DNA of 64,000 nt from an uncultured Collinsella sp. (GCA_900545745.1 URAD01000001.1:12611-76610); one strand, 5' to 3'. Counted from the first letter of the stretch, positions 19,145 through 53,085 are shown. Notes: generated by a model not told the origin, from the sequence alone. Made by a program: numbers and translations.

Positions 19145-19201
19145 AAGTGCGCCGGTATTTTACCAAACCGAAACGGCTCCATCCCAAAAAGACGAGCAAG
19201 A

Positions 19202-19267
19202 AGTTGCGGTGGAATAGTTCCTGTTTTTGCTGCCAAAGCCCCCAACTAGGAACTATTTCACCGCAAC
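19202..19267. repeat. palindromic intergenic repeat element, copy 3
   Basis: agttgcggtggaatagttcctgttt ... actaggaactatttcaccgcaac. The arm variants (gttcc/ggaac) are compensatory. Confidence 0.75.
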
Positions 19268-19293
19268 AGAGGAGACGGGGGCAGGTGACCGGC

Positions 19294-21261
19294 CTAGCGC
19301 AGGGAGCGCAGGCCGCCGGCATCCTTGTCAAGGACTGTGAAGCGTACGGCATCTAGATGCTCAAGGATGCTGATGGCGCGCTTGCGCGACACGCCCAGGG
19401 ACTCGCGTAGCACACTCGTGGTGGCAGCGCCGCCGGCGTCGGTGATGGCAGCAGCGACAAGCTCGCGCGCATGGGCCTCGGCGGTAGCGGACAGGGCAAC
19501 GTCACGTTCGACCTTCACGATGGAACGGTTGAGCGAAAGCTCGCGCAGCGCACGCGTCATGGTGTCGCGATCGAGCTGGAGTTGCTCGCCCACCTCGGGC
19601 AACGTCGGCGCATCGAGGCCGGCTTCGTCCAGCAAGGCAACGATGCGTTCGCTGGCCTCGCGCACCACGCGTGCCGCCGCGGCGGCCGAATGCGGATCGA
19701 ACACCTCGGCGCCCTCGGAGGCGCACACGCCGCGAGAGCAGCCCTCGGAAATCAGGGCTGCGGCAACTGTATCGTCAGCGGTAGGCCAAGCAGCATGGGC
19801 GACGGCGCCGGGCGTAAAGCCCGTCTCCTTGGGGGCAGCCGCGTGCATGGCAGACAGGGTCGCCGCCAGGGCATCCATCGCAGCGTCAAGCACCACGGCG
19901 TCCGCCAAGAGGTCCGTTTCACCCGCGGCAAGTTTGCGAACGGAGCCCTGCGTCACCAACCCGCGCAGCGCGGCATCGACCTGGCCGACACCAAGATCCA
20001 AAGCCTCGGCAACATCAATCACCGTAACCGGCAGCGCCTGCAGCGCAAGCCAAGCGCCCACACCGCCCGCGATATCGCCGGACTCGAGCGCCACATACAG
20101 CGCACGCTCCCCCGCCGAAAGCTCGCGCGAGCGACGGCAGCGCGAAAGCAGCACGCGCCCGCCGCCGATGAGCATGACCGGCGAATAGGACAGCACCACG
20201 GCATGGTCGCCGGCACGCAGCGGCAGCGGTTCCTCCAAGCGCACCTGCACGGTACGGGTCTCGCCCACCGCCATGGGGGCCTCGCCCTCCATGAACATGA
20301 TGCGGCCGACGACCTCGGCCGTACCGGCCATCACGTGCACGCGCGCACCCGACTCGAGCACACGCGGCTTGGCTCCCTCGCGACCCAAAAACGTAAACGC
20401 CATCATAAAGCGCAGCGTCTGGCCAAAGTGACCCTCCACGCCGAGCATCTCACCGCGATCGAGCGCAGCGACGCCATCGCCCACCAGGTTGAGCGCCACG
20501 CGCTGACCGGGCAGCGCCCGCTGCGTGTCGCCATGCACTTGGATCCCGCGTACGCGGCAGGCCGTGCGCGACGGCAGCGCGACGAGCTCATCGCCCACCG
20601 CAACCGGCGCATCGTGCAGCGTTCCCGTCACGACGGTGCCGGCGCCCTTGATCGTAAAGCAGCGGTCAATCGGCAAGCGCGGCGCGGCATCGGTGCGCTC
20701 GGCACGGTCGCGGCAGGTATCCCAGCAGGCATCCACGCACTCATCGAGCGCTGCCAGCAGCGCATCAATCCCCTCGCCCGTCTTAGACGACACAGGCACG
20801 ATCGGCGCGCCCGCAAACACGGTACCCGACAAAAAGTCGTCGACATCGAGCTCGGCAAGCTCGGTCATCTCGGCATCAGCCAAATCGCACATCGTCAGCG
20901 CGACCACCATATGCGTAACGCCCAGCAGTTCCAGCACATGCACGTGCTCGCGGGTCTGCGGCATCACGCCCTCGACGGCAGAGACCACCAACACGGCAAC
21001 ATCAATGCCCGTGGCACCCTGCACCATGGCGCGCAGGTAATGGGCATGCCCGGGCACGTCGACCAGGCCAACGATCTTGCCGCTCGGCAGCGCCAGCTCG
21101 CCAAAGCCCAGCTCCACGGTCATACCGCGACGGCGCTCAACCTCCAGACGGTCGGGATTCTTGCCGGTCAGCGCCTCGATCAGTGCGGACTTACCGTGGT
21201 CGACGTGGCCCGCCGTGCCAACGATAACGGGACACTCCACCAACGCCTGAACCTCACTCAT
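19294..21261 (-). CDS. selB: selenocysteine-specific translation elongation factor SelB
   Basis: N-terminal GTPase (GTAGHVDHGKS, DVPGH) and a long winged-helix C-terminus. It overlaps selA by 4 nt. Confidence 0.9.
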   Translation of the reverse strand: MSEVQALVECPVIVGTAGHVDHGKSALIEALTGKNPDRLEVERRRGMTVELGFGELALPSGKIVGLVDVPGHAHYLRAMVQGATGIDVAVLVVSAVEGVMPQTREHVHVLELLGVTHMVVALTMCDLADAEMTELAELDVDDFLSGTVFAGAPIVPVSSKTGEGIDALLAALDECVDACWDTCRDRAERTDAAPRLPIDRCFTIKGAGTVVTGTLHDAPVAVGDELVALPSRTACRVRGIQVHGDTQRALPGQRVALNLVGDGVAALDRGEMLGVEGHFGQTLRFMMAFTFLGREGAKPRVLESGARVHVMAGTAEVVGRIMFMEGEAPMAVGETRTVQVRLEEPLPLRAGDHAVVLSYSPVMLIGGGRVLLSRCRRSRELSAGERALYVALESGDIAGGVGAWLALQALPVTVIDVAEALDLGVGQVDAALRGLVTQGSVRKLAAGETDLLADAVVLDAAMDALAATLSAMHAAAPKETGFTPGAVAHAAWPTADDTVAAALISEGCSRGVCASEGAEVFDPHSAAAAARVVREASERIVALLDEAGLDAPTLPEVGEQLQLDRDTMTRALRELSLNRSIVKVERDVALSATAEAHARELVAAAITDAGGAATTSVLRESLGVSRKRAISILEHLDAVRFTVLDKDAGGLRSLR

Positions 21262-22715
21262 CGAGCAATCGCCTTCTTAACGCACGCGACGAGCGTCGTT
21301 GCCGCCGTCTCGATATCGCGGTCACCCACGAGCGTGCGCACGTCAAACAAAATGCGATCGTGCGAGGTTCGTGTGACGACCGGCGTGTCGAAGTCCTGGA
21401 CAAGCGAGCGCTTAAGCGCGTCGACCGTCAGGCGCTCGTCAACAAGGCGCACGGCAACGCACATCGTGGGTAGCTCCATGGTAGGCAGCGAACCGCCACC
21501 GGGTGTCGAGGACTCCTCGACAATCTCCAACTCAACGGCGCACGGGCAACCGGCCTTATCGAGCCCGGCGACCATACAATCGCGCAGCTTACGGGCACGA
21601 CGCTCCAGATGAGCCTGCGGAAGCGTGAGCATGCTGAGCACCGGCACCTCGCGATGGGCAACATCGGCACCGTCCATGTAGATGCGAAGCGTGGCCTCAA
21701 GCGCCGTGAGCGCCAACTTGCCCGGACGCAGAGCACGCATAAGCGGATGCGACCCGCAGGCCTGGACCAGATCGCGACGACCCATGATAATGCCCGCCTG
21801 TGCGGCACCGAGCAGCTTATCGCCCGAACACGACACGATATCAAGCCCCGCCGCGACCGAGGTCGGCGTGGTCTCCTCGCCGCCGCGAACCAGGATATCG
21901 TCGGGCAGCAGCGCGCCAGACCCCTGGTCCTCGTAGAACAGCAGACCATGCTTGTGGGCCAGGGCGGCAAGCTCCCGAGAGCTCACTTCCTCGTGAAAAC
22001 CCTCGATGCGATAGTTGGAAGGATGGACCTTGAGGATCATGGCCGTTTCGGGCGTGATGGCGCGCTCGTAGTCGCTCAAATGCGTGCGGTTGGTGGCCCC
22101 GACCTCAACGAGCTTGGCACCCGAGGCCTCCATAACATCGGGGATACGGAAGCTGCCGCCGATCTCGACAAGCTCGCCGCGGCTGACGATAACCTCCTTG
22201 CCCGCAGCGTGAGTCGCCAGTACCAGCAGCACCGCGGCGGCATTGTTGTTGACCACGAGCGCGTCCTCGGCACCGGTGAGAGAGCGAATCAGCTGGGCAG
22301 CGTGCTCCTTGCGCGACCCACGCGAGCAGGTGTCCACGCTGTACTCGAGCGTGCTGTACCCGCGCGCGACCTCGGCCACGGCCTTGGCGGCCGACTCCGC
22401 GAGCGGGGCGCGACCCAAGTTGGTATGGATGACCACGCCCGTAGCGTTGACGGCGGGACGCAGGCTCGGCAGCGCGGAGCGGTGAGCACGCCACTCGATG
22501 GCCGAAGCCAGGTCGCGCTTAGAGCGCGGGGCGGCACCGGCGCGAATGGCGGCGCGCTCCTCGTCGAGCTCGGCCGTGACGGCGGCATGCACCACCGCGT
22601 CGCAGGTCTCCCCCGCCGCCTTCACCACCGGCCACTCGGCAAGCAGCTCGTTGACGGAAGGAATAGCGCGCAGGCGGGCGCGTACCTCATCAGACATGTT
22701 CTGGCTATCGCTCAT
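21258..22715 (-). CDS. selA: L-seryl-tRNA(Sec) selenium transferase SelA
   Basis: PLP-lysine region SGDKLLGAAQAGIIMGRRDLV. 485 aa. Sits upstream of selB. Confidence 0.9.
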   Translation of the reverse strand: MSDSQNMSDEVRARLRAIPSVNELLAEWPVVKAAGETCDAVVHAAVTAELDEERAAIRAGAAPRSKRDLASAIEWRAHRSALPSLRPAVNATGVVIHTNLGRAPLAESAAKAVAEVARGYSTLEYSVDTCSRGSRKEHAAQLIRSLTGAEDALVVNNNAAAVLLVLATHAAGKEVIVSRGELVEIGGSFRIPDVMEASGAKLVEVGATNRTHLSDYERAITPETAMILKVHPSNYRIEGFHEEVSSRELAALAHKHGLLFYEDQGSGALLPDDILVRGGEETTPTSVAAGLDIVSCSGDKLLGAAQAGIIMGRRDLVQACGSHPLMRALRPGKLALTALEATLRIYMDGADVAHREVPVLSMLTLPQAHLERRARKLRDCMVAGLDKAGCPCAVELEIVEESSTPGGGSLPTMELPTMCVAVRLVDERLTVDALKRSLVQDFDTPVVTRTSHDRILFDVRTLVGDRDIETAATTLVACVKKAIAR

Positions 22716-37599: not shown

Positions 37600-39873
37600 C
37601 TACACGATTTGGTTCACGTGCGTCTCGTCGTCGAACTTGGCGGCACCGGGCTCAACGTCCTGGGGAGCGGCGGCGTCCACCAGAGCCTGCTTGAGCTCGG
37701 TGTACTGACGCTCGACCTCGCCCTCGGCCCAGACCTGGTCGGCAATGGCGTCGACCTGGCAGGCGGAAAACTTGTCCTCGGGCGTGTGCGAGACCGGGTC
37801 GACCTTGTGCATGGTCAGCTCGTTGCACTTGCCGATCCACCACTGGTAGGTCATATAGACCGTGCCCTTGTTGATGCGGTCGCTCACGTCGGCGCGGCTG
37901 TATACCTGGCCGCGGCGGCTGTGAATCGAGACGATGTCGCCGTTCTTGATGCCGCGCGCCTGGGCGTCCGCGGGATTCATGCGAACAAAGCCGGGCTCGT
38001 CGGCGAGCAGCGCCAGCGTCTTGCAGTTGCCGGTCATCGAGCGGCAGCTGTAGTGGCCGACCTCGCGGACGGTGCACAGGATGAGCGGGTACTCATCGTC
38101 GGGAAGCTCGGAGGGCGCCTCCCAGTCGTGCGCCATCAGGTTGGCGCGGCCGTCCTTGGTGGTGAACTTGCCACCAGCGAACATGTCGGGCGTACCGTGG
38201 TCGTTCACATCGGTGCTCTTGACCGGCCACTGGGCGTAACCGCCCTCGGGAGCCATCTTCTCGTAGGTCGCGCCCACAAAGTTGGGGCACAGGCTAATGC
38301 ACTCGTTCCAGATCTGCTCGGTGTTGTCGTAGTGCATGGGGTAACCCATGCGCGTGGACAGGTCCGCGAAGATCTCCCAGTCGTGGCGGCACTCGCCCTT
38401 GGGCGGAACAGCCGCGTCAAAGTGCTGGAAGCTACGGTCGGATGCAGTAAAGACACCCTCGTGCTCGCCCCAAGAGGTGGCAGGCAGGATGACGTCGGCG
38501 AGCATGGTCGTCTGCGTCATAAAGATGTCCTGGCAAATGAACAGGTCCAGCTCGGAGAGCGTCTTGCGCATACCGGCCGAATCGGGCTCGGTCTGCACCG
38601 GGTCCTCGCCGTAGTTGTAGAAGCAGTGCACCTTGCCCTCGTCGACCAGGTGGCCCAGGTCGGTGAGCTTGTAGCCCTCCTCGAGCGGGAGCTTTTCCTC
38701 GGGCACGCCCCAAGCCTTGGCAAACTTGGCACGCACTGCCGGGTCGGTGACCTTCTGGTAGCCAGGGTACAGGTTGGGCAGCATGCCCATATCGCAGGAG
38801 CCCTGGACGTTGTTCTGACCGCGCACGGGCGCGAGGCCGGAATTGGGTTTGCCGATCTGGCCGGCAACGCAGGCGATGGAGGCGATGGTGTGCACCGTCT
38901 TCAGGTTCTGCTTCTGCTGGCATACGCCCATACCCCAGCCAATGATGGCAGAGGGCTTCGCCGTGGCGTACATCTCGGCAGCTTGGTGGATCAACGCGGG
39001 CTCGACACCCGTGATGTCCTGTACGGATTCGGGAGTGTAGTTTTTGATGGTCTCCCACCATTCGTCAAAGCCGTTCGTGTGCTCGGCGACGAATTCCTTG
39101 TCGTAGAGGCCATCGTTGACCAAGCAGTTGGCAAAGGCGTTGAGGAACGCAACGTTGCAACCGTTCTTGATCGGAAGGTAGAGATCGGCGATACGCGCGG
39201 TTTCGATATGGCGCGGGTCGGCGACGATGATCTTGCAACCCTTTTCTTTGGCTCGCACGATACGCCTTGCGACGATGGGGTGCGAATCGGCAGGGTTATA
39301 GCCGAAGAGGAAAATGCAGCCCGCATCCTCCATACCGGGGATGGAGCATGACATGCAACCTGAACCAACCGTGTCCATCAGACCGAGGACAGTAGGGCCG
39401 TGTCAAGTACGGGCGCAGTTGTCCACGCTGTGGGTGCCGATGCACGCACGCGTAAACTTCTGCATGACGTAGTTCGCCTCATTGCCGCCGCCTCGCGAAG
39501 AGCCGGTGGTCATGACAGCGTTAGGACCATATTCGTCAATTATGGCCTGCATCTTAGATGCGGTGAAATCCAGTGCCTCGTCCCAGCTTACGCGCTCAAG
39601 ATCCGCGCCCTTAGTGCGGCGGATCATCGGGTGCAGCACGCGAGGAGTCAAGATCTTGGTGTCGTTGATGAAGTCGTAGCCGCTCATGCCCTTAAGGCAC
39701 AGCTCGCTCTGGTTGGTGATGCCGTTGAGCGGTTCGGTACCCACGACCTGGCCGTTTTGGACCAAGAGGTTAAACTGGCAACCGGCGCCGCAATACGGGC
39801 AGATCACTTTATGCTTCTCCATGACACCCTCCTTCCTTTTTCTGCTACCGAATACTCGGTACTTATTTGACAA
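37600..39873 (-). CDS. fdhF: formate dehydrogenase H, selenocysteine-containing; in-frame TGA (Sec) at 39403-39405
   Basis: Two track ORFs (39403..39873 and 37600..39378) are collinear with E. coli FdhF across the stop: ...DNCART-[TGA]-HGPTVLGL... versus E. coli ...CCARV-U-HGPSVAGL.... The sequence right after the TGA (CACGGCCC ... GGUCUG) resembles my recollection of the E. coli fdhF bacterial SECIS. selA, selB, selC and selD are present in this window. Confidence 0.85.
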
Positions 39874-41746: not shown

Positions 41747-42769
41747 CTATCGGGAGTCGACGTAGGGTTTTGTTGTCGGAATGCCGTAGCCGCGCATCAT
41801 GGCACCGAACGATTCCACGTCGTAGGTGTCCGAGAGTTTGAAATGAATGACATTGTGGCCCATGGCGCGAAGGTTCGCGTCGCGCATGAGGGCCGCTCGA
41901 TACGTTTTTGCCGCCGCCCGCTCTGGATCATTTTGAGCCTCGTCTTCAAACTTGCCTAGCCCATGCAGCTCTGCCAGCGTCCATGAGCCGTCTGGCATCT
42001 GCCAGCCATAATCTGCTAGATAATAGCCAGCGTTTCCCGGTCGCGTTATCTCAACTTGAAGCTCGGGCGCGGCAACCCCAGCGAGAATCATCGCTGCTCT
42101 CGCCTCAGACTCGCCGCCATTGTCTGACCTGCCGTCCATATACTCAAAAACGTCAAAAGCACGCGCGATGCCATGCAACCCTCGGCAATTTGCCTGCGCG
42201 TATGCTCGCAGTTCTTCGCGTTCGACATCGTACTCACGGGCCAAGCCATCGACATAGCCCAGCGCATAGCGAAAGGCGCTCGTTCGAGCGATATCAACAA
42301 CCGTTCGACACGGATCCGTCAGTGTAAACAGACCTAGCCGCCACACTTCGCCCGCCCGCCAGCGCTTGTATTCAACGAACTCATACGTATCACGCCTTGT
42401 AGACCGTGGCAGCAGTACTTGCACTTTATCCAGAAGCGTATACGCCGAGCCGATGCCGTAGAGCAGCGCTGCCGTCGATCCGCAAAACACAGCATCCGGT
42501 TCAACGACCGCAATAGCGGATGCCAGCTGAAAGATGCGATCTTCAACCCCAAGATTATTCCAATAGACCGGATCCGCATACACATGGTTGTAAAGACGAA
42601 GCATGAGCTCTTCCTGCATAAGCTCGCGCGCACGGCGTTCATCCCAAGGATCAATTGTTATAAGCAGCTGTCCATCTTGATGAATTCCAACGGCCGAGAA
42701 TAGCATTCTTGCATATGACTGCGGAAAATGTTTGCCTTTATCGAGCATGGCCAACCCCATAACCATCAC
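41747..42769 (-). CDS. DUF559 (Vsr/PD-(D/E)xK-like endonuclease-fold) domain protein, hypothetical
   Basis: The C-terminal region GESEARAAMILAGVAAPELQVEITRPGNAGYYLADYGW matches my recollection of the DUF559 motif. The gene is visibly lower in GC than its flanks and is bracketed by repeat copies 4 and 5. Confidence 0.5.
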   Translation of the reverse strand: MMVMGLAMLDKGKHFPQSYARMLFSAVGIHQDGQLLITIDPWDERRARELMQEELMLRLYNHVYADPVYWNNLGVEDRIFQLASAIAVVEPDAVFCGSTAALLYGIGSAYTLLDKVQVLLPRSTRRDTYEFVEYKRWRAGEVWRLGLFTLTDPCRTVVDIARTSAFRYALGYVDGLAREYDVEREELRAYAQANCRGLHGIARAFDVFEYMDGRSDNGGESEARAAMILAGVAAPELQVEITRPGNAGYYLADYGWQMPDGSWTLAELHGLGKFEDEAQNDPERAAAKTYRAALMRDANLRAMGHNVIHFKLSDTYDVESFGAMMRGYGIPTTKPYVDSR

Positions 42770-43082: not shown

Positions 43083-43156
43083 TGGAGCGGGCGACGGGAA
43101 TCGAACCCGCGTCATCAGCTTGGAAGGCTGGGGTTCTACCATTGAACTACGCCCGC
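43083..43156 (-). tRNA. tRNA-Gly (anticodon TCC)
   Basis: The reverse complement reads GCGGGCGTAGTTCAATGGTAGAACCCCAGCCTTCCAAGCTGATGACGCGGGTTCGATTCCCGTCGCCCGCTCCA. The anticodon loop is cTTCCaa. Confidence 0.8.
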
Positions 43157-43162
43157 AAGATA

Positions 43163-43239
43163 TGGTCGGGACGACAGGATTTGAACCTGCGACATCCTGC
43201 TCCCAAAGCAGGCGCGCTACCAAACTGCGCCACGTCCCG
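43163..43239 (-). tRNA. tRNA-Pro (anticodon TGG)
   Basis: The reverse complement reads CGGGACGTGGCGCAGTTTGGTAGCGCGCCTGCTTTGGGAGCAGGATGTCGCAGGTTCAAATCCTGTCGTCCCGACCA. Confidence 0.85.
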
Positions 43240-43330: not shown

Positions 43331-44689
43331 CTAGCTCCTCGAATGTGCGACAAACTTGCTGTGGAGCAGACCGATCACAAACGCCACCACGGCAACCGGC
43401 GCCCACGCGGCACCGATGTCTGCCAGGGGTAGCGCATCAAACGGCAGCCACGCGCCCGCAAAGAACGCATCGCGGACCGAGGTGATCACGCTCTGCACGG
43501 CAACCACGCCGCCGACCCAGACCCACACCTGCGGATGAGCGTCGCAAAAGCCGTGTACCAAACCCATGAGGACCAGCACGATGGCGACGGGATACAAGGC
43601 GTTGAGCATGGGCACCGAGAACATGAGGATCACGTCGAGGCCCACGTTGGAGAGCACGCACGAAAACGCTGCGAACACAAAGGCGAGAATCGCAAAGGGA
43701 CGGCGCATGGCCTCCTCGGAGGCCTCCGCTCCCCCTTTAACCACATACGTTTCGCAGAAGTAACGCGCGCAGCAGCTGATGAGGCCGATGCACACGTTCA
43801 TGCAGGCGAGGAAGAAGATGGCGAAGACCACGACCGTGCCGGCAAGCCCAAAGTGCATGGAGGCCGAGCGGGCGAGAATGGCGGCGCCGTTGGTGGCGTC
43901 GGACATCACGGTGCCGAGCTGCATACCGGCAAGGGCCAAGCCGCAATAGATGATGGCCATGAGCACGCCGGCGATCACACCGGAACGCGAAATCTCGAAG
44001 GCCACGCGTTTGTCATCGGTAACACCCAACTCGTGGATGGTCTCGGCGATGATGATGCCGAAGGCGAGCGACGCAAGCAGGTCCATGGTCTGGTAGCCGG
44101 TCAAGAAGCCTTGAACCGCAGCGCCGGCATCATAGGGAGCTTGCGGGGCAGCAGCCGGTCCCAGCGGCGAGATCACGGCAGCACCCACGACCAGCACGAT
44201 GAGCGCGATGAGCGCGGGGCCCGTAATGCGACCGAGTACGCGTGTGATGACCCCCGGGCACAGCGTAAGCACAAACGCGACGACAAAGAAGCCGACGGCA
44301 AACACCAGGCGAGCCGTGCCGAGCGAGACGCCCTCGGGCAGCAGCGGCACTAGCATCTCGAACGCCGTAGAGCTTGTGCGCGGAATGGCCAGGCACGGAC
44401 CGATGGCCAGGTAGACCGCCGCAACGAAGAATTCACCAAACTTAGGATGCACGCGCCCGGCCAGCTCGCGGGCCGTGCCGGCGAGCGCGACGGCGATAAA
44501 TCCCATGACGGGCAGACCGATGGCGGCAATCAGAAAGCCGAGCATGGCGACCGGCGTGGCAGAACCTGCCTGGAGCGCCAGCAGCGGCGGAATAATGAGG
44601 TTGCCGGCGCCGAAGAGCATCGAGAACAGGGCGATGCCAACGGTAACGACATGATCGGAGCGTAGACCACGCGGGGCGGATGAGGCCAT
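43331..44689 (-). CDS. brnQ: branched-chain amino acid transport system II carrier (LIVCS family)
   Basis: MLFGAGNLIIPPLLALQAG N-terminal signature and 12 TM helices. Start at MASSAPRG (44689). Confidence 0.85.
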   Translation of the reverse strand: MASSAPRGLRSDHVVTVGIALFSMLFGAGNLIIPPLLALQAGSATPVAMLGFLIAAIGLPVMGFIAVALAGTARELAGRVHPKFGEFFVAAVYLAIGPCLAIPRTSSTAFEMLVPLLPEGVSLGTARLVFAVGFFVVAFVLTLCPGVITRVLGRITGPALIALIVLVVGAAVISPLGPAAAPQAPYDAGAAVQGFLTGYQTMDLLASLAFGIIIAETIHELGVTDDKRVAFEISRSGVIAGVLMAIIYCGLALAGMQLGTVMSDATNGAAILARSASMHFGLAGTVVVFAIFFLACMNVCIGLISCCARYFCETYVVKGGAEASEEAMRRPFAILAFVFAAFSCVLSNVGLDVILMFSVPMLNALYPVAIVLVLMGLVHGFCDAHPQVWVWVGGVVAVQSVITSVRDAFFAGAWLPFDALPLADIGAAWAPVAVVAFVIGLLHSKFVAHSRS

Positions 44690-44766
44690 ATGCACACCTT
44701 TCGGGTCGAAACAAAAACGGGACGGGCAAAAACACCCGTCCCGCAAGTATAAACGGTCTAGCAGCT

Positions 44767-45906
44767 TTAGCAGGCTAAATCGCATAGAGCATCGATAGCC
44801 GTGTCAACTTCTTCGGTAGTGTTGAAATACCCAAACGAGAAGCGAACGATACCCTGGCGCTCGGTCCCCAGCGCGCGGTGCATGAGCGGAGCGCAATGGG
44901 CGCCGGGGCGCGTCGCAATCCCCCACCCTTGCATGAGCGCGTCCGAGATCTCGGCAGAGTCGATATCGCCCACGTTGAGCGACGCAATCGCAGAGCGCAT
45001 CGGCTGGTCAAAGGCACCATAGAGCTTAATCCCCGGAATCTCGCGCACGCCGGCGAGGAAACGCTCGGCAAGCGCGCGCTCACGCGCCGCAATCGCCTCG
45101 GCCCCACCCTGGGCCTCGATAAAGTCGAGACCGGCAGAAAGGCCCGCGATGCCGTGACCGTTGAGCGTGCCCGCCTCAAGGCGCGTGGGCCACTCAAGCG
45201 GCTGCAGCGCATCGAAGCTGTGCACGCCCGTGCCGCCCATGGCCCAGGGCGCCACGTCGACACCCTCCGCCACGGCCAGACCGCCGGTGCCCTGCGGGCC
45301 CATCAATCCCTTGTGGCCGGTAAAGCACACGACGTCGAGCCCCATGGCCTGCATGTCGATCTTCGCCGTACCGGCAGACTGGGAGGCGTCGACGATCACC
45401 AGCGCACCGGCAGCATGAGCCATGGCCGCCACGCGCGCAATGTCGACCGCGTTGCCGGTCACATTGGAGGCGTGCGTCACCACCACAGCACGCGTGCCCA
45501 GCGTGACCAACCGCTCGAGCTCGTCGTAGTCGAGCACGCCGCTCGCATCGCAGCCCGCATGCTCAACGGTCACACCCTGCTCTGCCGCAAGGCGGTTAAG
45601 CGGACGCAGCACGGAGTTGTGCTCGAGCACCGTTGTGACCACACGGTCGCCGGGGCGCACCACGCCGTTTATGGCAGTGTTGAGCGCCGCCGTGGAGTTG
45701 GGCGTAAAGCACACATGGTCCGCCCTCGGGCAACCCAAAAGGCGCGCGAGCTTGGCACGGCAAACGTGAATCGTACGAGCGGCATCGAGGGCACCCGACG
45801 TGGCGCCGCGCCCGGCATTGCCGAGCGAGCACATCGCCTGCGTCACGGCATCGATGACCGTCTGCGGCTTGTGCATGGTCGTCGCCGCGTTATCCAGATA
45901 GATCAT
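44767..45906 (-). CDS. class V aminotransferase-fold cysteine desulfurase / selenocysteine lyase-like enzyme
   Basis: YLDNAATT ... PLP-lysine motif (FTGHKGLMGPQGTGGL). It is adjacent to DUF3343, yedF and selD. Confidence 0.8.
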   Translation of the reverse strand: MIYLDNAATTMHKPQTVIDAVTQAMCSLGNAGRGATSGALDAARTIHVCRAKLARLLGCPRADHVCFTPNSTAALNTAINGVVRPGDRVVTTVLEHNSVLRPLNRLAAEQGVTVEHAGCDASGVLDYDELERLVTLGTRAVVVTHASNVTGNAVDIARVAAMAHAAGALVIVDASQSAGTAKIDMQAMGLDVVCFTGHKGLMGPQGTGGLAVAEGVDVAPWAMGGTGVHSFDALQPLEWPTRLEAGTLNGHGIAGLSAGLDFIEAQGGAEAIAARERALAERFLAGVREIPGIKLYGAFDQPMRSAIASLNVGDIDSAEISDALMQGWGIATRPGAHCAPLMHRALGTERQGIVRFSFGYFNTTEEVDTAIDALCDLAC

Positions 45907-46154
45907 CGCACGACCTCCCACATATCAATCACGGTATAGCCCTCGGTGGGAACACCCGCCTCGGCGAGTTCGCCGCGCAGCAGTTCCTCATCGGCAGGCA
46001 ACGCCTTCCACGCCAGACCGCAGCCGGCAGCGACCTCCCCGGGCACGGGAATCGTTCGCCCGGGAAGGCCGCGCTCAATGCACAGGGACTCGCAGCCCAT
46101 GGCGGCCGCCGTGGTGGGAAACGTGATGACAAGCGCCGGGCGCTTCTCCCTCAT
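45903..46154 (-). CDS. DUF3343 (putative Se/S carrier protein-like)
   Basis: MREKRPALVITFPTTAAAMGCESLCIERGLPGRTIPVPGEVAAGCGLAW. Its stop overlaps the start of the downstream desulfurase. Confidence 0.6.
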   Translation of the reverse strand: MREKRPALVITFPTTAAAMGCESLCIERGLPGRTIPVPGEVAAGCGLAWKALPADEELLRGELAEAGVPTEGYTVIDMWEVVR

Positions 46155-46173
46155 GGCAACTCCAACCAATACG

Positions 46174-46800
46174 CTACGGGCGCACGACGCGCACGGCCTG
46201 CTCCATCTTCTCCACAATCACGTACATATTCGTGACCTCGCCCACCGCGAGCTGGTCCTTAATGCCATAGTGATCGAGGCAGGTACCGCAGGTGAGAATC
46301 TCGACACCCTGCTCGGCCAGACCCTTCAGGTCGTCGAGCACCGGCGAGCCCTCGACGGTGAGCTTGGCGCCGCCGTTGTAGAACAGCATGGTCGCGGGCA
46401 GCTCCTCCTGCTGCGTCACGGCAAAGATAAACGCCTTCATGAGCTTGTGGCCCAGCTCGTCGTCGCCACGGCCCATGCAGTCGGTGTAGACGGAAATGAC
46501 GAGCTTGCCCTTGCCGGCGCTGGCATCACAGAAGGCAGCGCCATCCTGCTCGGGATCGGCCACGGCAACGGCGCCAGAGGTCGCCACGGTCACGTGCCAC
46601 TCGGCGTCAGAAACCTTCTCGACCGAGGCCGTGCAGCCTTTCTCCTGCGCCATCTTGGAAATGTTCTTGACGGCGGTCTCATTATCGACCGAGGTCACGA
46701 CGGCGCCCTCGCCATCGAGCTGCTTCAGGGCTTTGAGCGTCTTGACGACGGGCAGCGGGCAGGCATCGCCCATGGCATTGACTTCAATTTTGGTAGACAT
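46174..46800 (-). CDS. yedF: selenium metabolism protein YedF (TusA-like N-domain + DsrE-like C-domain)
   Basis: MGDACPLPVVKTLKALKQL is a TusA CPxP motif. The C-terminal half is DsrE/DsrF-like. About 200 aa. Confidence 0.7.
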   Translation of the reverse strand: MSTKIEVNAMGDACPLPVVKTLKALKQLDGEGAVVTSVDNETAVKNISKMAQEKGCTASVEKVSDAEWHVTVATSGAVAVADPEQDGAAFCDASAGKGKLVISVYTDCMGRGDDELGHKLMKAFIFAVTQQEELPATMLFYNGGAKLTVEGSPVLDDLKGLAEQGVEILTCGTCLDHYGIKDQLAVGEVTNMYVIVEKMEQAVRVVRP

Positions 46801-46860
46801 AGCTTTTCCTTTCGAAAGAACCGTTCTAGAGAACGGTAAACAGTTACATAAACGTGCGGG

Positions 46861-47910
46861 CTAGCGAACAACGTGGACGGCAGGACCGCCTGGCACCGAC
46901 TCGCACACGCGACCGACGACGGCGGCAATACGTCCTTCGGCATGCAGACGGCGCGCAAGCTCATCCACATCGGCAGCAGGTGCCGCGATAAGCAGGCCAC
47001 CAGACGTCTGCGGGTCGTACAGCGCGTCGAGCATGCCCGGCTCAAGGTCCTCGTCGGCCGTCACGCGCGGGCCAAAGAAGTCCTGGTTGCGGTAGGAGCC
47101 CGCGGGGATAATGCCCAAACGCGCCATGTCGAGCACCTGGTCAAAGAGCGGCACCGCCCCCGACGCAAGCTCAATCTGCACGCCCGAGCCCTCGGCCATC
47201 TCGCACGCATGCCCGATCAGGCCAAAGCCCGTGATGTCGGTGCAGCCGTGAAGCTCAAGTCCCTCGGCCAGACGAATCGGAGCCTCGTTGAGGGTGCGCA
47301 TCGAGTCAAACATGGCTGCGGCCTCGTCCTGCTCGATGAGCTCGCCCTTAATGGCCGTGGTGATGATGCCCGAGCCAACCGCCTTGGTCAGCAGTAACGC
47401 ATCGCCCACGCGCGCGCCGCTGTTGGCGAGCATGCGGTCGAGCGCGACAAACCCGCTCACGGACAGGCCGTACTTGGGCTCGTCGTCGTTGATGGTGTGA
47501 CCGCCCGCGATGGAGCAACCCGCCTCGACGCACTTGTCGGCGCCGCCCGCCAGAATCTGACCGGCAACCTCAACGCCCAGACAGCTCGGGATGCACAGCA
47601 AGTTCATGGCATGGCTCGGCCGCCCGCCCATGGCGTAGATGTCCGACAGCGAGTTTGCCGCGGCGATCTGGCCAAACAAAAACGGGTCGTCGACCATCGG
47701 TGGGAAGAAGTCGATGGACTGCACGAGACCCAAGTTATCGCCAACGCGAAAGACGCTCGCATCGTCGGAGGTATCGAACCCCACGAGCAAGTTGTCGTTA
47801 TGCACATTGGGTAAATCGCCCAGGACCTGGGCGAGGGCTCCAGGAGCCAACTTAGCGGCTCAACCGCTCGCGGCCGTCATAGACGTGAGCCTCATGGTGT
47901 CCTTAGCCAT
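46861..47910 (-). CDS. selD: selenide, water dikinase SelD, selenocysteine-containing; in-frame TGA at 47860-47862 (codon 17)
   Basis: The track ORF (46861..47850) lacks the catalytic N-terminus. Reading upstream through the TGA gives MAKDTMRLTSMTAASG-U-AAKLAPGALAQVL..., with a GGAAGGGAGG RBS before the ATG at 47910. The Sec is at the same position as the Cys/Sec in known SelD proteins. Confidence 0.85.
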
Positions 47911-49121
47911 ACGAACCTCCCTTCCAACAAATCAACGACTTTAAGTATACGCGCCAGGCACGCTTCCCAAGAGACCGCCGACGGCTCGAACGTCGAAGGC
48001 GGAGCCGCAAGCGCCTGCGCGATAGCATCTGCCAGTGCGCGCTCAAACAACGGAAGGTCGGCCGCCACGGGCGTGTCGACATCCGTCATACGCGGCGACG
48101 CCACCCACGTCACGGGAGCACCGGGAAGCATCGCCTCCATCCAGGGACGAACGCCGGGCAAATCAGTCGCCACAACTTTGCAGCCGCACGCGAGGGCCTC
48201 AATCGTCACGAGCGGCAGACCCTCGTAAAACGAAGGCAGCACAAAAACGTCGGAACTGCGGTAGGCACGCACGAGCTCATCGCTATCCAGGCGCCCCGCC
48301 AGCGTCACCGGCGCATCCGAGGCCGCGGTCAAGCGCTCGATACGCGCGTACTCGGCATCGTCCCCGCGGCCGCCCACAAGTACCAAGCCAGATGGGCGGA
48401 CGCCATCGTCAATCGGCAATGACACGGCTCGAACCAGCGACTCGACGCCCTTTTTAAAGCAAATCTTGCCCACGTACACAAGCGATCCCGGCTGCCTCGC
48501 CACGCTTGCGTCGCGACAGAAGACGCGATGGTCGTAGCCCGTCCCAATCACGTGGATGCGATCGGTATCGACGCCGCACACCAGGCTAATCTGCTCAGCC
48601 TGCTCAGCATGGAGCGCAAAGACGGCATCGAGCCGACGAACCGCACTTACGATGCGATCGCGCTCGAGCGCATGCGAACGCAGCTGGCGCAGGTCGGTCG
48701 AATGGCACACTGCAACAACTGGCACGCCCCGGACACACTCGCGCGCCAATGCGGTCACCAGATACAGGTGATGGCAGAGCACCAGATCGGGCCGAAACTC
48801 AGCCACCGCCCGATCGATTGCAGCAGCAAATGCCCGCTCAAATGCCTTGAGCATCGAAGGCGTCAGATCACGATAGCGTGTAGAGGGATAGGGCATGACA
48901 TCGGACATACCGCAGATGGGAAACGGCAGCTCGGGCGACTCGAACGGTACGGCAAACACGGCAGCACGTCGGTCCAGCTCGCCTTGGGTATCACCCGGAG
49001 CCGCGCCGCAAAGCACGGCGGCGCGATGCCCCGTCTCGATCTGTTCGCGCACGAGCGCGGCAAGGTAGGTGCCGCTGCCGGTGCTATCTGGTTTTTGTGC
49101 CGAGATATTGAGGATGCGCAT
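47892..49121 (-). CDS. glycosyltransferase family 4 (GT-B fold)
   Basis: The C-terminal EGLPLVTIEALACGCKVVATD motif (E-x7-E) is typical of GT4. Start at MRILNISAQ (49121). Its 3' end overlaps the selD start region. Confidence 0.7.
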   Translation of the reverse strand: MRILNISAQKPDSTGSGTYLAALVREQIETGHRAAVLCGAAPGDTQGELDRRAAVFAVPFESPELPFPICGMSDVMPYPSTRYRDLTPSMLKAFERAFAAAIDRAVAEFRPDLVLCHHLYLVTALARECVRGVPVVAVCHSTDLRQLRSHALERDRIVSAVRRLDAVFALHAEQAEQISLVCGVDTDRIHVIGTGYDHRVFCRDASVARQPGSLVYVGKICFKKGVESLVRAVSLPIDDGVRPSGLVLVGGRGDDAEYARIERLTAASDAPVTLAGRLDSDELVRAYRSSDVFVLPSFYEGLPLVTIEALACGCKVVATDLPGVRPWMEAMLPGAPVTWVASPRMTDVDTPVAADLPLFERALADAIAQALAAPPSTFEPSAVSWEACLARILKVVDLLEGRFVWLRTP

Positions 49122-49135
49122 GTCGCGGTACACCC

Positions 49136-49900
49136 CTAGGCCAAGGCGGCGGCGCGAATCGCCGCGCCGATGGCGCCGGCAAAGCGGGCCGTGGGCGAGG
49201 TGGTCACCGGAGACCCCAGCAGCGCGCCCAACCGTTCCACAACGTAAGCGTTCTCGCACAAGCCGCCGGTCAGGTAGTACGGAGCACCCGCTGCCTGCGA
49301 GGCCATAGTCGCCACGCGCGATACGACGCTCTCGATCACGCCACGCGCGATGTTCTCGCGCGGCTCGCCGCGGCCGATGAGGCTAATGACTTCACTTTCG
49401 GCAAAGACCGTGCACATGCTGCTGATCTTGGTGGGCTCGCCGGAGCGAGCCAACTCTGCCATCTGCTGCTGAGAAATGCCCAAGCGGTCGGCCATGATCT
49501 CCAGAAAGCGTCCCGTACCGGCAGCGCACTTGTCGTTCATGGCGAACTTGGCCACGCGCCCGCCTTTGAGCTGGATGACCTTGGTGTCCTGGCCGCCCAC
49601 GTCAATCACCGTGCCGTGGTCGCCAAAAAGCGCTACGGCACCGGCGCCGTGGCAGGTGATCTCAGTCACGACCTTGTGCGCAAAGGGCACGGCAACGCGG
49701 CCGTAGCCGGTCGCGATAACGCGCACATCGTCGGCTGCCACGTCGTAGCCGGACGCAGCAAGCTCGCCGCGCAGGCGCTCGGCCGCATCGACCGAGGAGA
49801 ACCCGGTTGGCTGCACACACGTCCACGCCACCGAACCCTCCCCGTCGACCACAGCAGCCTTAGCCGCCGTAGACCCGATATCGATCCCGATCCCTATCAT
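49136..49900 (-). CDS. acyl-CoA dehydratase activase (BadF/BadG/BcrA/BcrD/HgdC ATPase family)
   Basis: MIGIGIDIGSTAAKAAVV..., an ASKHA fold with Cys residues for a bridging [4Fe-4S] cluster. 254 aa. Confidence 0.8.
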   Translation of the reverse strand: MIGIGIDIGSTAAKAAVVDGEGSVAWTCVQPTGFSSVDAAERLRGELAASGYDVAADDVRVIATGYGRVAVPFAHKVVTEITCHGAGAVALFGDHGTVIDVGGQDTKVIQLKGGRVAKFAMNDKCAAGTGRFLEIMADRLGISQQQMAELARSGEPTKISSMCTVFAESEVISLIGRGEPRENIARGVIESVVSRVATMASQAAGAPYYLTGGLCENAYVVERLGALLGSPVTTSPTARFAGAIGAAIRAAALA

Positions 49901-49924
49901 GGCTCTCTTCCAATCTAAACATCA

Positions 49925-50052
49925 AAGGTAGCGGCGCGTTCAGGCGCCTTAGCTCTAGGTTTCTCAGGTGCCGGAGATTGCCCCGAAAGAGGAGCGCAGC
50001 GTACTTTGGGTACGCAAGCGACAGTTTGAGGGGCAAGATCCGGTGCCTGAGG
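49925..50052 (-). ncRNA. conserved structured intercistronic RNA element A (long imperfect hairpin plus a small GC hairpin) between the dehydratase-B-like gene and the activase
   Basis: The minus-strand RNA CCUCAGGCACCGGAUCUUGCCCC...GGGGCAAUCUCCGGCACCUGAG encloses a conserved apical region. It is a paralog of element B, with compensatory changes. Confidence 0.5.
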
Positions 50053-50055
50053 AAG

Positions 50056-51219
50056 CTAGAGGGTTTCGATGAAGGCGGCGATGCGCGTCTCGATCTGGCC
50101 CATGTCACCGTTGCTGTAGTCGGTCTCGATCTTCATATACGGAATACCCGCACCCTCGACGGCCTCCTGCATGCGCGCGCTCTCAACGTTGAAGGTGTGG
50201 CAGGCCTGTAGCACGCTCTCTACCACGCCATCGACATGGTACTTCTCGCACATGGCCAGCGTGTTCTCCATGCGGCCGTCGTTAGGCGTCATGACCGAGC
50301 AGTTGATATCCAGGTAGCGGTCGGCGATGGCGCGCAGAATGTCGGGCGCGTCCGGGTCGATCATCATAGCCGCCGTGCGCTCACCCGAGCAGTCGTCCAT
50401 GCACACGACCACGCCGCCGTTGGACTCGATGGTGCGGCCGATCTTGTTAATCACACCGCCCACCGGGCAACCGGTGATCAGAATGCGCTTGGCGTCCGCC
50501 GCAACCGGGCGCTCGCCCGCGTCGTAGGCCTCGCGCAGCTTGGCGACCTTTTGCTCCAGCTGCTGCGTATAGGCCTCGATATCAAAGCTGAACGTACCGG
50601 CAAACATAGTGCTCATCAGGTCGACGCCGCTCATGGCCGCCGGCTGGTTGGCCTGCAGCGCAAACATCTTGAGCTGAGCCGCACGCAAGCGGTTGCGACG
50701 ACGGACGGCAGCACGCAGGTCATCGTCGGTAATCGTGATGCCGTAGAAGCCCTCGAGCTCCTCCTTGAGCAGGCGGCACTCCTCGTACCAGCCTTCACGC
50801 TCGTAGGCGCGATCGCGACCCTGCGGAAGATGCAGAATGTGCGTGCGCTTGAGCTCGTTGAGTAGCTCGTACATCTTCTTCTTGCCGTCGCAGGTGGTCT
50901 CGCCGATGATCATGTCGCTAAAGTACGTAAACGGGCACTTTTGCGAATAGGCAAAACCATACGTAGACTTGATGAGCGGGCACAGGTTTGCCGGCAGCAC
51001 CTTCTCGGCCTCGGGAATCACCTCGTCGGACGTGCCGCACAGCGCCACGCTCGCAGCCCCCGCGGCATCGATAATCTCGAGCGGCGTGTAGCTGCACAGA
51101 AAACCGACCAGGCGATTACCCGCCTGCTTATAATCCTTGACGCGAATAAACGCCGCCTTGCGTTGCTCGTTGAACTCCTCAAACGTGGACGGCAACGGCT
51201 GCTCAATATTTTCCGACAT
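50056..51219 (-). CDS. 2-hydroxyacyl-CoA dehydratase family protein (HgdB/BcrB-like; possible double-cubane-cluster protein)
   Basis: Conserved Cys-containing regions ([25 protein letters not shown]). Start at MSENIEQ with an AAGGAG RBS. It is a paralog of the upstream gene (~50% identity at the C-terminus). Confidence 0.7.
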
Positions 51220-51249
51220 ATAACTCCTTAACAAACCTTTTAACCAACC

Positions 51250-51352
51250 AAGGAAACGGCTTTCCCAGGTGCCCGAGGTTGCCGTGAAAGATGAGCGCCG
51301 CATACTTTGGTAGCAAGCGATGGTTTGAACGGCAAGATCGGGTGCCTGGGGA
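51250..51352 (-). ncRNA. conserved structured intercistronic RNA element B (paralog of element A) between the two dehydratase-like genes
   Basis: The minus-strand RNA CCCCAGGCACCCGAUCUUGCCG...CGGCAACCUCGGGCACCUGGG has base pairs that covary relative to element A (CUCAGG/CCUGAG to CCCAGG/CCUGGG; CCGGA/UCCGG to CCCGA/UCGGG). The ~45-nt apical region is about 85% identical. Confidence 0.5.
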
Positions 51353-51372
51353 AGCCGCTGGACCGGATAGCC

Positions 51373-52656
51373 CTAAATGGTTTCCAAGAAAGCCTCAATC
51401 CTGGTTTGCAGTTGGCCTGCATCCTCGCCGGCGTAGTCGGTCGTGATGTGCATAAACGGAATGCCGGCCTCCTCGGCGGCCTCCCCCACGGCAAACGACT
51501 CCATCTCGTAGAGCGTGCAGAACTGCAGGGCCACGTCGACGATACCGTCGGCATGCAGGTCCTTGGTCATCTGGACAATGTCCTTCATACGCTGGTCGTT
51601 GGGCGTAAAGACGGCACAGTTGATCTTAAAGTAGCGCTCCGCGATGGCGTCGAGCATCTCGTCGACCGTCTCGCCGGACTCGTCGACCAGGTCCTTGTAG
51701 TAGCGCGAGCCCGTGCAGGACTCCTCGCCCACCACGACGCCACCGGCCTTCTCGATCAGGTTGAACAGCTTCCAGTTGGGCACGGCCATGGGCGTACCGG
51801 TGTACAGGATGCGCTTGGTCCCCTTGGGCGCCACGCCCTCGCCAGCCTCGACACGCTGCTCGCACTCAGCCGCCATATCGTTGATGGCTCCGGTCAGACG
51901 CGGCGTGTCGTCCATAAAGGCGGCTTGAACGGTCAGCAGGCTGTCGAGACCGCTGATGGGCGCCGGGTCGGCAGCGCGCGTGGCAGCGAGGCGCTGCAGG
52001 GCACGGCGCTTCTCATTGACGGCGTGGATGGCGGCCTTCAGACGCTCAGGCGTAATCTTGACGCCGCACTCGTCCTCGATCTTGGCGGCGAGCTTCTTGA
52101 CCTCGGCCTTCCAGGTCACGAGCGTCGACTCGTCGTGTACGTTGGGAATATCCATGACGTACATGTTCTTTTGCGTGGCAAAAAACTCATAAGCCTTCTT
52201 CTTGCCATCGCAGGTGTTCTCGCCCACCACCAGGTCACTCGACTCAATGTAGGGGCAGACCTCGCCCAGCTTAAAGCCGACAAAGCTCTTGATAAGCGGG
52301 CAGGTATTGCGCGGCAGGTGCTCCTCGACCTTATCGGTTGCCCAATCGGCACCCGAGCACAGACCCACAGGGATACCGTCGCAGGCGAGCACAATTTCCT
52401 CGGGCACGTAGACGCAGAACGAACCGACGATCTTGGTGGCCTCGCTGGCCTCCTTCTTGTCGAGCATCTCCTTAATACGGCCGCTGTGGATGTTGGTGGC
52501 CACAAAGTCCAGGTAGGACGTGGCCTTGGGGCGATTGTTCTGCGTCAGGAACATATCGCCGTACATCTGGCCCACGGCGCCCAGCAGCATGTCGTGGTCG
52601 GCAAGATTCATGCCGAGGCTCTCCCACATCGGATGAAAATCGAATTCTTCAGCCAT
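51373..52656 (-). CDS. 2-hydroxyacyl-CoA dehydratase family protein (HgdA/BcrC-like)
   Basis: 427 aa. Conserved Cys motifs (GSFCVYVP, GENTCDGKKK, YTGTPMA, EESCTGSRYY). Confidence 0.7.
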   Translation of the reverse strand: MAEEFDFHPMWESLGMNLADHDMLLGAVGQMYGDMFLTQNNRPKATSYLDFVATNIHSGRIKEMLDKKEASEATKIVGSFCVYVPEEIVLACDGIPVGLCSGADWATDKVEEHLPRNTCPLIKSFVGFKLGEVCPYIESSDLVVGENTCDGKKKAYEFFATQKNMYVMDIPNVHDESTLVTWKAEVKKLAAKIEDECGVKITPERLKAAIHAVNEKRRALQRLAATRAADPAPISGLDSLLTVQAAFMDDTPRLTGAINDMAAECEQRVEAGEGVAPKGTKRILYTGTPMAVPNWKLFNLIEKAGGVVVGEESCTGSRYYKDLVDESGETVDEMLDAIAERYFKINCAVFTPNDQRMKDIVQMTKDLHADGIVDVALQFCTLYEMESFAVGEAAEEAGIPFMHITTDYAGEDAGQLQTRIEAFLETI

Positions 52657-53039
52657 GACGGTTCCCCTCTCGAACCAAAAATGAATAGCTACGGTATTGC
52701 TGCACGGTGGGTGGCGAAAACCCAGCCGCGCCTAAACCCGGAATTTTGGGGAACCTGCTTTGCGGTCGATTATTTAGTTGTGCGTCGTCTCTCCCGGAGC
52801 CGTGAACATACCCGCTCATATGCGACTCCGAGCCATATACAGGGCGCGCGCGGCAACGCGGCGAATGTATGTCGTCTGCGGCATGTGCGCACCCTCCTTT
52901 ACAAGTTGAGGTCAACTATATCAACGGTCATCGACTATGCGAACACCGTTGACATTCGTACGACAGAGGTACCCGTTGCCTTTTAATAATTTATTATCTT
53001 GCTTGATAATTAATCACCATTCTACATTCGGCGAACGGT

Positions 53040-53085
53040 AGGGAACGAAACGGCGGGCTGCCGAGAATCCTCGACAGCCCGCCCT
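53040..53085 (-). terminator. GC-rich hairpin (ggcgggctg...cagcccgcc) downstream of modC
   Basis: Seen directly in sequence, followed by a U/C-rich tract on the minus strand. Confidence 0.4.

Follow-up and report, generated by a model that had tools for sequence, protein, structure and literature searches.

A predicted Collinsella operon that joins two double-cubane-cluster proteins and their reductase to selenium-carrier genes and selD

The gene cluster described here occupies positions 43331–52656 of a 64,000-nucleotide stretch of DNA from an uncultured Collinsella sp. (GCA_900545745.1 URAD01000001.1:12611-76610), the whole of which is referred to as the window; judged from glycosyltransferase identities of 91–100%, it comes from Collinsella aerofaciens or close relatives. 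Nine genes are present, all on the minus strand. In the direction of transcription they encode two double-cubane-cluster proteins (DCCPs)—the class-I-like DCCP1 (51373–52656; 427 aa) and the shorter, class-II-like DCCP2 (50056–51219; 387 aa)—a DCCP reductase, or 'activase/archerase' (49136–49900; 254 aa), a retaining glycosyltransferase of family 4 (GT4; 47892–49121; 409 aa), the selenophosphate synthetase SelD with selenocysteine (Sec) at codon 17 (46861–47910), a long-form YedF with TusA-like and DsrE-like domains (46174–46800), a small cysteine protein of the DUF3343/Se_S_carrier family (45903–46154), an EF2568-type class-V pyridoxal-phosphate (PLP) cysteine desulfurase, Sec-lyase-like (csd; 44767–45906), and a carrier of the BrnQ family (brnQ; 43331–44692). 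An initial annotation had described a single co-oriented gene group with short or overlapping junctions, and this is what is found. The predicted Collinsella operon is a form of selenium-utilisation cluster not described before, and it exemplifies a widespread module of DCCPs and selenium carriers at which the literature has only hinted.

Both DCCP genes match the Pfam domain HGD-D, and both exceed the 350-bit cut-off of NF040772, the model for double-cubane-cluster-containing anaerobic reductases (490.4 bits for DCCP1, 495.5 for DCCP2), which bears out the 'double-cubane-type' guess made for this set at the outset. The two are paralogues, 39% identical and both of the beta type, and not the A-like and B-like partners of an HgdAB pair for which they had been taken. 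DCCP1 aligns over its full length, N-terminal extension included, with the Carboxydothermus hydrogenoformans DCCP (PDB 6ENO/7YYL; E=2e-127); its next-best PDB matches, BzdN, HadC and MbdN, reach only 1e-16 to 1e-20. The published double-cubane motif, C-x18/19-C-x18/19-C-x29-C-x~165-C-x~32-C-x32-C, is recognisable in DCCP1 (C81, C100, C119, C149, C314, C347, C380) and in DCCP2 (C42, C61, C80, C110, C277 or C273, C307, C340) with spacings that deviate by 1–3 residues at most, and all seven cysteines are invariant in a DCCP alignment that includes the structural reference.

The paralogues differ at their N-termini. DCCP1 keeps the extension and helices ('class I') that in 6ENO close the coenzyme A (CoA) channel and leave only narrow tunnels; DCCP2 is ~40 residues shorter there, like the 'class II' YjiM type. 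The DCCP2 open reading frame (ORF) is readable back to 51303, but this extension falls within a hairpin, and the ATG at 51219 has a Shine-Dalgarno sequence, AAGGAG, ahead of it. The activase matches TIGR00241 (229 bits) and PF01869 and has both cluster-bridging cysteine motifs, NDKC125 and SMC163. By these sequence criteria DCCP1 and DCCP2 are true double-cubane-cluster proteins whose cognate reductase is encoded in the same predicted operon. The description of DCCPs, which dates from 2018, presents them as nitrogenase-like and driven by ATP. They reduce small molecules at the expense of ATP and have no known physiological function (PMC7317905, PMC9351452).

All four families of the selenium cassette proposed in the initial annotation—selD, yedF, DUF3343 and the desulfurase—score above their curated cut-offs. 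SelD, with U scored as C, reaches 362 bits against TIGR00476 (cut-off 125); its in-frame TGA at 47860–47862 is codon 17, in the context MAKDTMRLTSMTAASG-U-AAKL ('ASG-U-AAKL') of the N-terminal glycine-rich loop, and the fold that follows the UGA is not distinctive (z score −1.3). YedF matches TIGR03527 (214 bits, cut-off 110) as well as PF01206 and PF02635, and the small carrier matches PF11823 (67.6 bits, cut-off 25; E=7e-19). The desulfurase scores 410 bits against TIGR01977 (cut-off 377) and 343 bits against the SclA model NF040779, below the cut-off of 525, which makes it a relative that lies outside the characterised SclA subgroup.

The boundaries of the cluster are marked by signals in the DNA, all on the minus strand. 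A terminator-like hairpin that ends the upstream modABC unit (53052–53083; 14-bp stem, 11 GC pairs, T-rich tail) stands directly after the modC stop at 53091. A sigma-70-like promoter candidate, a consensus match only (52915–52943; TTCGCA-17-TATAGT, extended TG, 9/12 matches), adjoins an AT-rich stretch ~260 nt upstream of the DCCP1 ATG. Activase and GT4 genes are separated by 14 nt, selD and yedF by 60 nt, and yedF and DUF3343 by 19 nt, while DUF3343 and csd share an ATGA overlap. The GT4 gene overlaps the selD start by 19 nt, as had been noted at first for this sequence; this overlap is limited to the 409-aa GT4 variant, and most Collinsella have a 405-aa GT4 with its stop 7 nt before selD. 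The only two sizeable internal gaps, ~155 nt each, lie on either side of DCCP2, and each contains an imperfect hairpin of ~100 nt: copy B between DCCP1 and DCCP2 (51255–51360; folding free energy −61.5 kcal/mol, z −3.9) and copy A between DCCP2 and the activase (49950–50055; −65.4 kcal/mol, z −3.9). The copies are paralogous, with compensatory stem substitutions, and neither has a T tract, so that they are not terminator-like. Beyond csd, 23 nt past its stop and ahead of the brnQ ATG, an intrinsic terminator follows (44717–44744; 12-bp stem, 8 GC pairs, then TTTTGTTT).

Because a modC terminator and a promoter-like site stand at one end, a strong terminator stands after csd at the other, and the junctions between are short or overlapping and the internal hairpins T-less, we predict one transcription unit, DCCP1-DCCP2-activase-GT4-selD(Sec)-yedF-DUF3343-csd, which would run ~8 kb from 52656 to 44767. 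The initial annotation had extended the unit to brnQ; since the strong terminator stands between csd and brnQ, brnQ is probably separate from the operon. With just 25 nt between the terminator hairpin and the brnQ ATG, no obvious promoter is left for brnQ itself, and control of brnQ by read-through or attenuation is possible. A weak Rfam match to the L20 leader in 44708–44816 (minus strand; E=0.78) is most likely due to chance.

Hairpin copy A is kept at its site in 53 Collinsella loci. A part in the stability or processing of the mRNA is conceivable for the two hairpins, as is an origin as recombination scars. Neither they nor the 260-nt leader nor the Sec insertion sequence (SECIS) region of selD has a match in Rfam at gathering or permissive thresholds. 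The ~260-nt leader of DCCP1 contains a 22-codon ORF (MPQTTYIRRVAARALYMARSRI) at 52815–52883 (minus strand) with a strong AAAGGAGGG Shine-Dalgarno sequence; this ORF may encode a leader peptide or have arisen by chance.

Conservation of the neighbourhood, proposed in the initial annotation as a check, is found both within the genus and beyond it. The order DCCP1-DCCP2-activase-GT4-selD-yedF-DUF3343-csd is kept in 80 of the 80 Collinsella species-level genomes sampled. A scan of genome contigs with the GT4 alignment recovered only Collinsella, because GTDB splits this genus finely, and it speaks for conservation within the genus but gives no sign of deep conservation. Thermophilibacter immobilis has two abutting loci that together read YedE-TusA-DUF3343-DCCP-DCCP-ABC-activase-...-grd genes-selD-selA-selB-yedF-DUF3343-GT4-csd (ABC, ATP-binding cassette), with the DCCP module ~17 kb upstream of the GT4 gene of the selD cluster, and Intestinibacter bartlettii, of the Bacillota, has csd-DCCP-DUF3343-activase.

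Metagenome contigs were scanned with an alignment of DCCPs that has the C. hydrogenoformans sequence in first place; the scan yielded 80 loci of 50–73% identity, and their neighbours were assessed by tblastn and by a separate all-against-all clustering of neighbour ORFs. In 36 of the 80, DUF3343, a class-V desulfurase, YedF, YedE/TusA or SelD stands beside the DCCP/activase module. Dereplication at 80% identity leaves 39 clusters, of which 18 have such selenium or sulfur (Se/S) genes; of the 23 loci whose two flanks each measure at least 3 kb, 13 have them. Within 2 kb of the module, matches to these genes occur at 9 times the density seen at 2–10 kb (binomial p 5e-13, uncorrected for relatedness). 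The unbiased clustering of neighbours recovers the DCCP in 79 loci and the activase in 55, then DUF3343 (19), the desulfurase (16) and YedF (12); no catabolic enzyme family recurs among these neighbours to a comparable degree. All four of the desulfurases sampled score above TIGR01977, and all four of the YedFs above TIGR03527. Positive loci span nearly all clades of the DCCP tree and 29–64% GC, one group of them being from Intestinibacter bartlettii, and the tree rules out a clade-specific cause of the link. The commonest arrangement is csd>DCCP>DUF3343>activase; DCCP>activase>YedF and YedE>TusA>DCCP>activase are also typical, and one locus (L090) has nearly the full Collinsella content, csd-DUF3343-DCCP-DCCP-activase-yedF-...-selD, with a UGA in selD. 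Importer-like YedE/TusA pairs, and selD itself, abut a DCCP in several lineages. The 80 DCCP genes contain no in-frame Sec codon or other selenium-specific signature.

The DCCP cluster of Collinsella also includes strain-variable cassettes (L076 2549–7826, L017 4116–7893, L028 8259–9173). Between DCCP1 and DCCP2 these consist of a five-gene Opp/Dpp-like ABC importer, whose substrate-binding protein gives a weak, sub-threshold match to the twin-arginine translocation (TAT) signal, or of an NMT1-type ABC importer with an enolase-superfamily enzyme; between DCCP2 and the activase the cassette is a SLAC1/TehA-type anion channel. Strains with a cassette in one of the hairpin gaps lack the hairpin at that site. 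Both an NMT1-type ABC system and a gene for SLAC1 are found in the equivalent cluster of Thermophilibacter.

The glycosyltransferase has the domains PF13439, PF13579, PF00534 and PF13692, that is, a Glyco_transf_4 N-domain and a Glycos_transf_1 C-domain, with an E-x7-E motif at E300–E308 that is invariant in the GT4 alignment. Its AlphaFold2 model (pLDDT 90) has two Rossmann domains, and the nearest folds in Foldseek are an MshA-like mannosyltransferase, GlgM, MshA, SPS (sucrose-phosphate synthase) and BshA, enzymes with small, mostly anionic acceptors; a pterin glucosyltransferase is also among the matches. The possibility that it is SenB was rejected: TIGR04348 gives 22.5 bits (cut-off 300) over residues 250–370 only, and no SenB appears among the PDB-sequence or Foldseek matches. 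No SenA (EgtB-like) gene is present in the window.

The family is large (375 representatives at E<1e-30). Se or molybdenum (Mo)-cofactor genes adjoin it in 7 of the 11 contexts sampled. In Arabiibacter, Thermophilibacter and Slackia faecicanis the orthologue is placed among selenium genes or next to them, as it also is in S. heliotrinireducens according to Lin et al. 2015. Two distant members (43–45% identical) stand in molybdenum contexts: one ends a modABC-moeA-mog-moaA-moaC-(MoCF+MOSC) operon (L168 3308–9215), and the other follows an AFOR/Mo-oxidoreductase/NrfD operon (L169 1296–10438), where the start of a class-V desulfurase gene overlaps the GT4 stop. These contexts hint at a molybdenum-cofactor connection. 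The initial annotation had placed the GT4 in the selenium cluster, but the link is weaker than it had implied: 8–10 kb around the homologues of Olsenella (60% identical), P0106, P0286 and Peptostreptococcus canis are free of Se genes, which weakens any obligate link between GT4 and selenium, and none of the 80 DCCP loci from outside the Coriobacteriia has this GT4. The evidence is suggestive of a tie to Se/Mo cofactor metabolism that is present without being obligatory. Apparent activase-GT4 'fusion proteins' in close relatives were discarded as a sign of coupling; in P0001 and P0008 a frameshift lets the reading run on in the overlapping frame, and P0013 is a chimera that stems from a deletion. 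That the GT4, whose gene overlaps selD, is a second selenosugar-forming enzyme unrelated to SenB is conceivable but improbable.

By family searches the window as a whole is an island of Se, Mo and formate genes. It contains a xanthine dehydrogenase (XDH)-family Mo hydroxylase and gdhA; mobA, tRNA-Sec, selB and selA; a PhsA/Fdh-like Mo enzyme; focA, hycI and hycH; a formate hydrogenlyase complex with a UGA-interrupted fdhF; the DCCP/sel operon; and modABC, mog/moaB and moeA. The fdhF gene, within the formate hydrogenlyase operon, is split by an in-frame stop into 39403–39873 and 37600–39378, which fits a Sec codon. With fdhF, tRNA-Sec/selB/selA (19048–22715) and the Mo hydroxylase (12260–16005) all in the same 64 kb, the selenium machinery is clustered with its likely clients. 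The top matches of the Mo hydroxylase are XdhA and Se-linked models, every one below its cut-off. ModA and ModB score above NCBIfam cut-offs, and the ModB permease (TIGR02141; 54165–55676, minus strand) has an unusual N-terminal extension of ~230 residues without a family match. Beside tRNA-Pro and tRNA-Gly (43083–43239) lies an ORF of 340 aa (41747–42769, minus strand) that has no Pfam match and an atypically low third-position GC of 0.56, against ~0.8 in neighbouring genes; other Collinsella genomes have it in the same orientation at 96–99% identity or inverted at 82–89%, and some lack it.

A link between DCCPs and selenium has precedents. Haft & Gwadz (bioRxiv 10.1101/2022.07.06.499078), who built NF040772, found 955 of 970 high-scoring DCCPs in SelD-positive assemblies, often adjoining the SAO locus. 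They proposed that DCCPs process Se compounds or, as a 'formal possibility', that the clusters are bridged by Se, and held pathway-level links likelier than new chemistry. In Lin et al. 2015 (PMC5322559, Table 1) the activase, two HGD-D proteins and a glycosyltransferase of Slackia heliotrinireducens are listed as STRING partners of YedE/YedF/DUF3343, where they go without comment. The initial annotation knew of no such pairing of selenium genes with a dehydratase-like set; given this SelD co-occurrence and STRING table it is not entirely new to the literature, although they are hints only, and no experimental work on a link between DCCPs and Se carriers was found in the literature. The embedding of the DCCP/activase module among Se/S carrier genes is consistent with the link drawn by Haft & Gwadz and sharpens it.

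We put the probability that the DCCP module is functionally coupled with the Se/S carriers at roughly 0.8, on the strength of gene neighbourhoods. As to the form of the coupling, we tentatively favour, at somewhat less than even odds, a role as supplier, in which the selenide used by the carriers and SelD would come from the reduction, by DCCPs, of Se species that are oxidised or bound. This role is favoured because YedE/TusA pairs and selD abut DCCPs, because the channels admit small molecules only, and because the Se(0)/HSe− couple is very negative: its potential, estimated from standard potentials, is near −0.7 V at pH 7, a range that suits an ATP-boosted reductase. By homology, the activase would take low-potential electrons and, through ATP hydrolysis, push them into the [8Fe-9S] clusters of both DCCPs. 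The conserved neighbourhood suggests that the DCCPs may then reduce elemental or poly-selenium, selenite or a selenotrisulfide-type adduct to selenide or perselenide, that this may be passed to the cysteine carriers DUF3343 and YedF, and that the EF2568-type PLP enzyme may supply the same two carriers from selenocysteine. The Sec-containing SelD would, as a member of its family, go on to make selenophosphate, for which the putative clients in the window are SelA/SelB/tRNA-Sec, the Sec-containing FdhF of formate hydrogenlyase and possibly the Mo hydroxylase. The GT4 would be a lineage-specific accessory of the Coriobacteriia that acts on a small-molecule acceptor.

Several observations weigh against the supplier role. 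Most SelD-positive organisms do without a DCCP, and thiol/thioredoxin chemistry suffices elsewhere. No Se/S gene is found in 44 of the 80 metagenomic loci, many of them on short contigs, and the long flanks of five (L084, L086, L135, L143, L144) are clean of such genes. The YedE/TusA-like pairs could be thiosulfate systems of the TsuAB type and not Se systems, and the variable ABC and SLAC1/TehA-type cassettes could be a sign of some other imported substrate. As the main rival reading, the DCCP might instead be placed as the client, with the desulfurase, DUF3343, YedF and SelD delivering chalcogen to its cofactor—by insertion of the bridging 'ninth' sulfide, or of selenide to give a Se-bridged double cubane—and with the reductase acting on another small substrate. 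The commonest gene order, csd-DCCP-DUF3343-activase, puts the carrier between enzyme and reductase and suggests, by analogy with nitrogenase genes and nifS, that the enzyme may come with a dedicated S/Se donor; the near-absolute co-occurrence with SelD and the 'formal possibility' raised by Haft & Gwadz point the same way, and the strain-variable transporters suggest a true substrate that varies and is not necessarily Se. However, the C. hydrogenoformans DCCP produced in E. coli is active with an all-sulfur [8Fe-9S] cluster, the 80 DCCPs are without a Sec codon or Se-specific signature, many DCCP loci have no donor gene at all, and YedE-type importers and selD next to a DCCP fit a supply line at least equally, so that we hold the client role to be rather doubtful. 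Its boldest form, in which DCCPs are selenium enzymes proper and csd/DUF3343/YedF/SelD install a selenide bridge to give an [8Fe-8S-Se] double cubane, seems to us quite improbable.

It is also conceivable, if unlikely, that the link is indirect: the substrate of the DCCPs would be some unrelated compound that is imported and then reduced in a pathway that shares anaerobic regulation with the Se genes, or that has a selenoenzyme step, and co-location would reflect co-regulation or island structure and not shared chemistry. The window is indeed a dense Se/Mo/formate island packed with cofactor genes, the transporter cassettes are varied (Opp-like; NMT1-type ABC with an enolase-superfamily enzyme; SLAC1), DCCP and activase stand alone in Thermoleophilia and on several long contigs, and Haft & Gwadz rate pathway-level links above new chemistry; yet what recurs, gene-adjacent, over 29–64% GC and across the DCCP tree, is three families of Se/S carriers, with no catabolic family comparably recurrent. 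There is, finally, the reading closest to the initial annotation, a 2-hydroxyacyl-CoA dehydratase of the HgdAB/FldBC type that serves amino-acid fermentation and is supplied through brnQ and gdhA. The HGD-D domain, the activase and an amino-acid carrier downstream all accord with it, but both proteins are beta-type DCCPs, and an alpha subunit and a CoA-transferase or dehydrogenase partner gene are missing. Scores against the HadB, HadC, BcrC and BzdN models are 19–104 bits for cut-offs of 420–750: an HgdA/HgdB-type heterodimer is rejected with 104 and 89 bits to HadC (cut-off 700) and no match and 19 bits to HadB (cut-off 750), and a class I benzoyl-CoA reductase with 84 and 77 bits to BzdN and 66 to BcrC (cut-offs 421–454) and with only one ATPase gene. 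DCCP1, furthermore, retains the helices that close the CoA channel in 6ENO, brnQ lies beyond the terminator, gdhA is 27 kb off, and nothing links gdhA or amino-acid transport to the cluster; the dehydratase reading has next to no likelihood.

The recurrent pairing gives the DCCP family a testable role in selenium metabolism, whether in selenide production or in a cluster that contains selenium. The csd/DCCP/DUF3343/activase/YedF module recurs at 29–64% GC and is joined here with selD in an abundant genus of the human gut. It bears on how anaerobes generate selenide and channel it to SelD, on what YedF, DUF3343 and the EF2568-type desulfurase do, and on the competition of gut bacteria with their host for selenium. 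If the DCCPs did carry an [8Fe-8S-Se] cluster, the selenium cofactors would gain a new member and SelD-dependent selenium utilisation a further trait, and the Collinsella operon would encode a selenium-bridged enzyme plus its complete maturation line.

Among known systems, HgdAB/HadBC and BcrBC/BzdNO with their activases share the superfamily fold and the ATP-driven type of electron injection with the Collinsella proteins, which differ from these dehydratases and benzoyl-CoA reductases in forming no alpha/beta heterodimer, in having the double-cubane motif in place of a single [4Fe-4S] site, and in the closed CoA channel of class I. The SenABC selenoneine pathway offers a parallel in gene arrangement, a GT-B-fold glycosyltransferase gene that overlaps the selD ORF, which is the criterion that uncovered SenB (SenB overlaps the SelD homologue SenC); the GT4 differs from the SenB selenosugar synthase in its 22 bits to TIGR04348, in the lack of a SenA/EgtB gene, and in being a retaining GT4 close to MshA/BshA/GlgM/SPS. 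The SAO locus and DCCP-SelD co-occurrence (Haft & Gwadz 2022) tie the same NF040772 family to selenium by comparative genomics, there through phylogenetic profiling and because its genes adjoin, in Clostridia and Deltaproteobacteria, the SaoL/ABC selenoprotein locus, whereas the partners in Collinsella are Se/S carrier and activation genes, with no SAO genes. The selD-associated cassette (Lin et al. 2015; Kayrouz et al. 2022) has the same four families, tightly linked and partly translationally coupled, and yedF and duf3343 are among the commonest selD-overlapping genes; in published descriptions of this cassette the DCCP/activase is not a component and figures merely as unlabelled STRING partners. 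The closest counterpart of the DCCP module is the C. hydrogenoformans DCCP/DCCP-R (6ENO, 7YYL; Jeoung & Dobbek), with which it shares the full-length alignment of DCCP1, the seven-cysteine motif, the class-I extension and a cognate BcrAD/BadFG-type ATPase encoded alongside, and from which it differs in having two paralogues, one long and one short, in a predicted operon with selD, yedF, DUF3343, csd and the GT4 gene.

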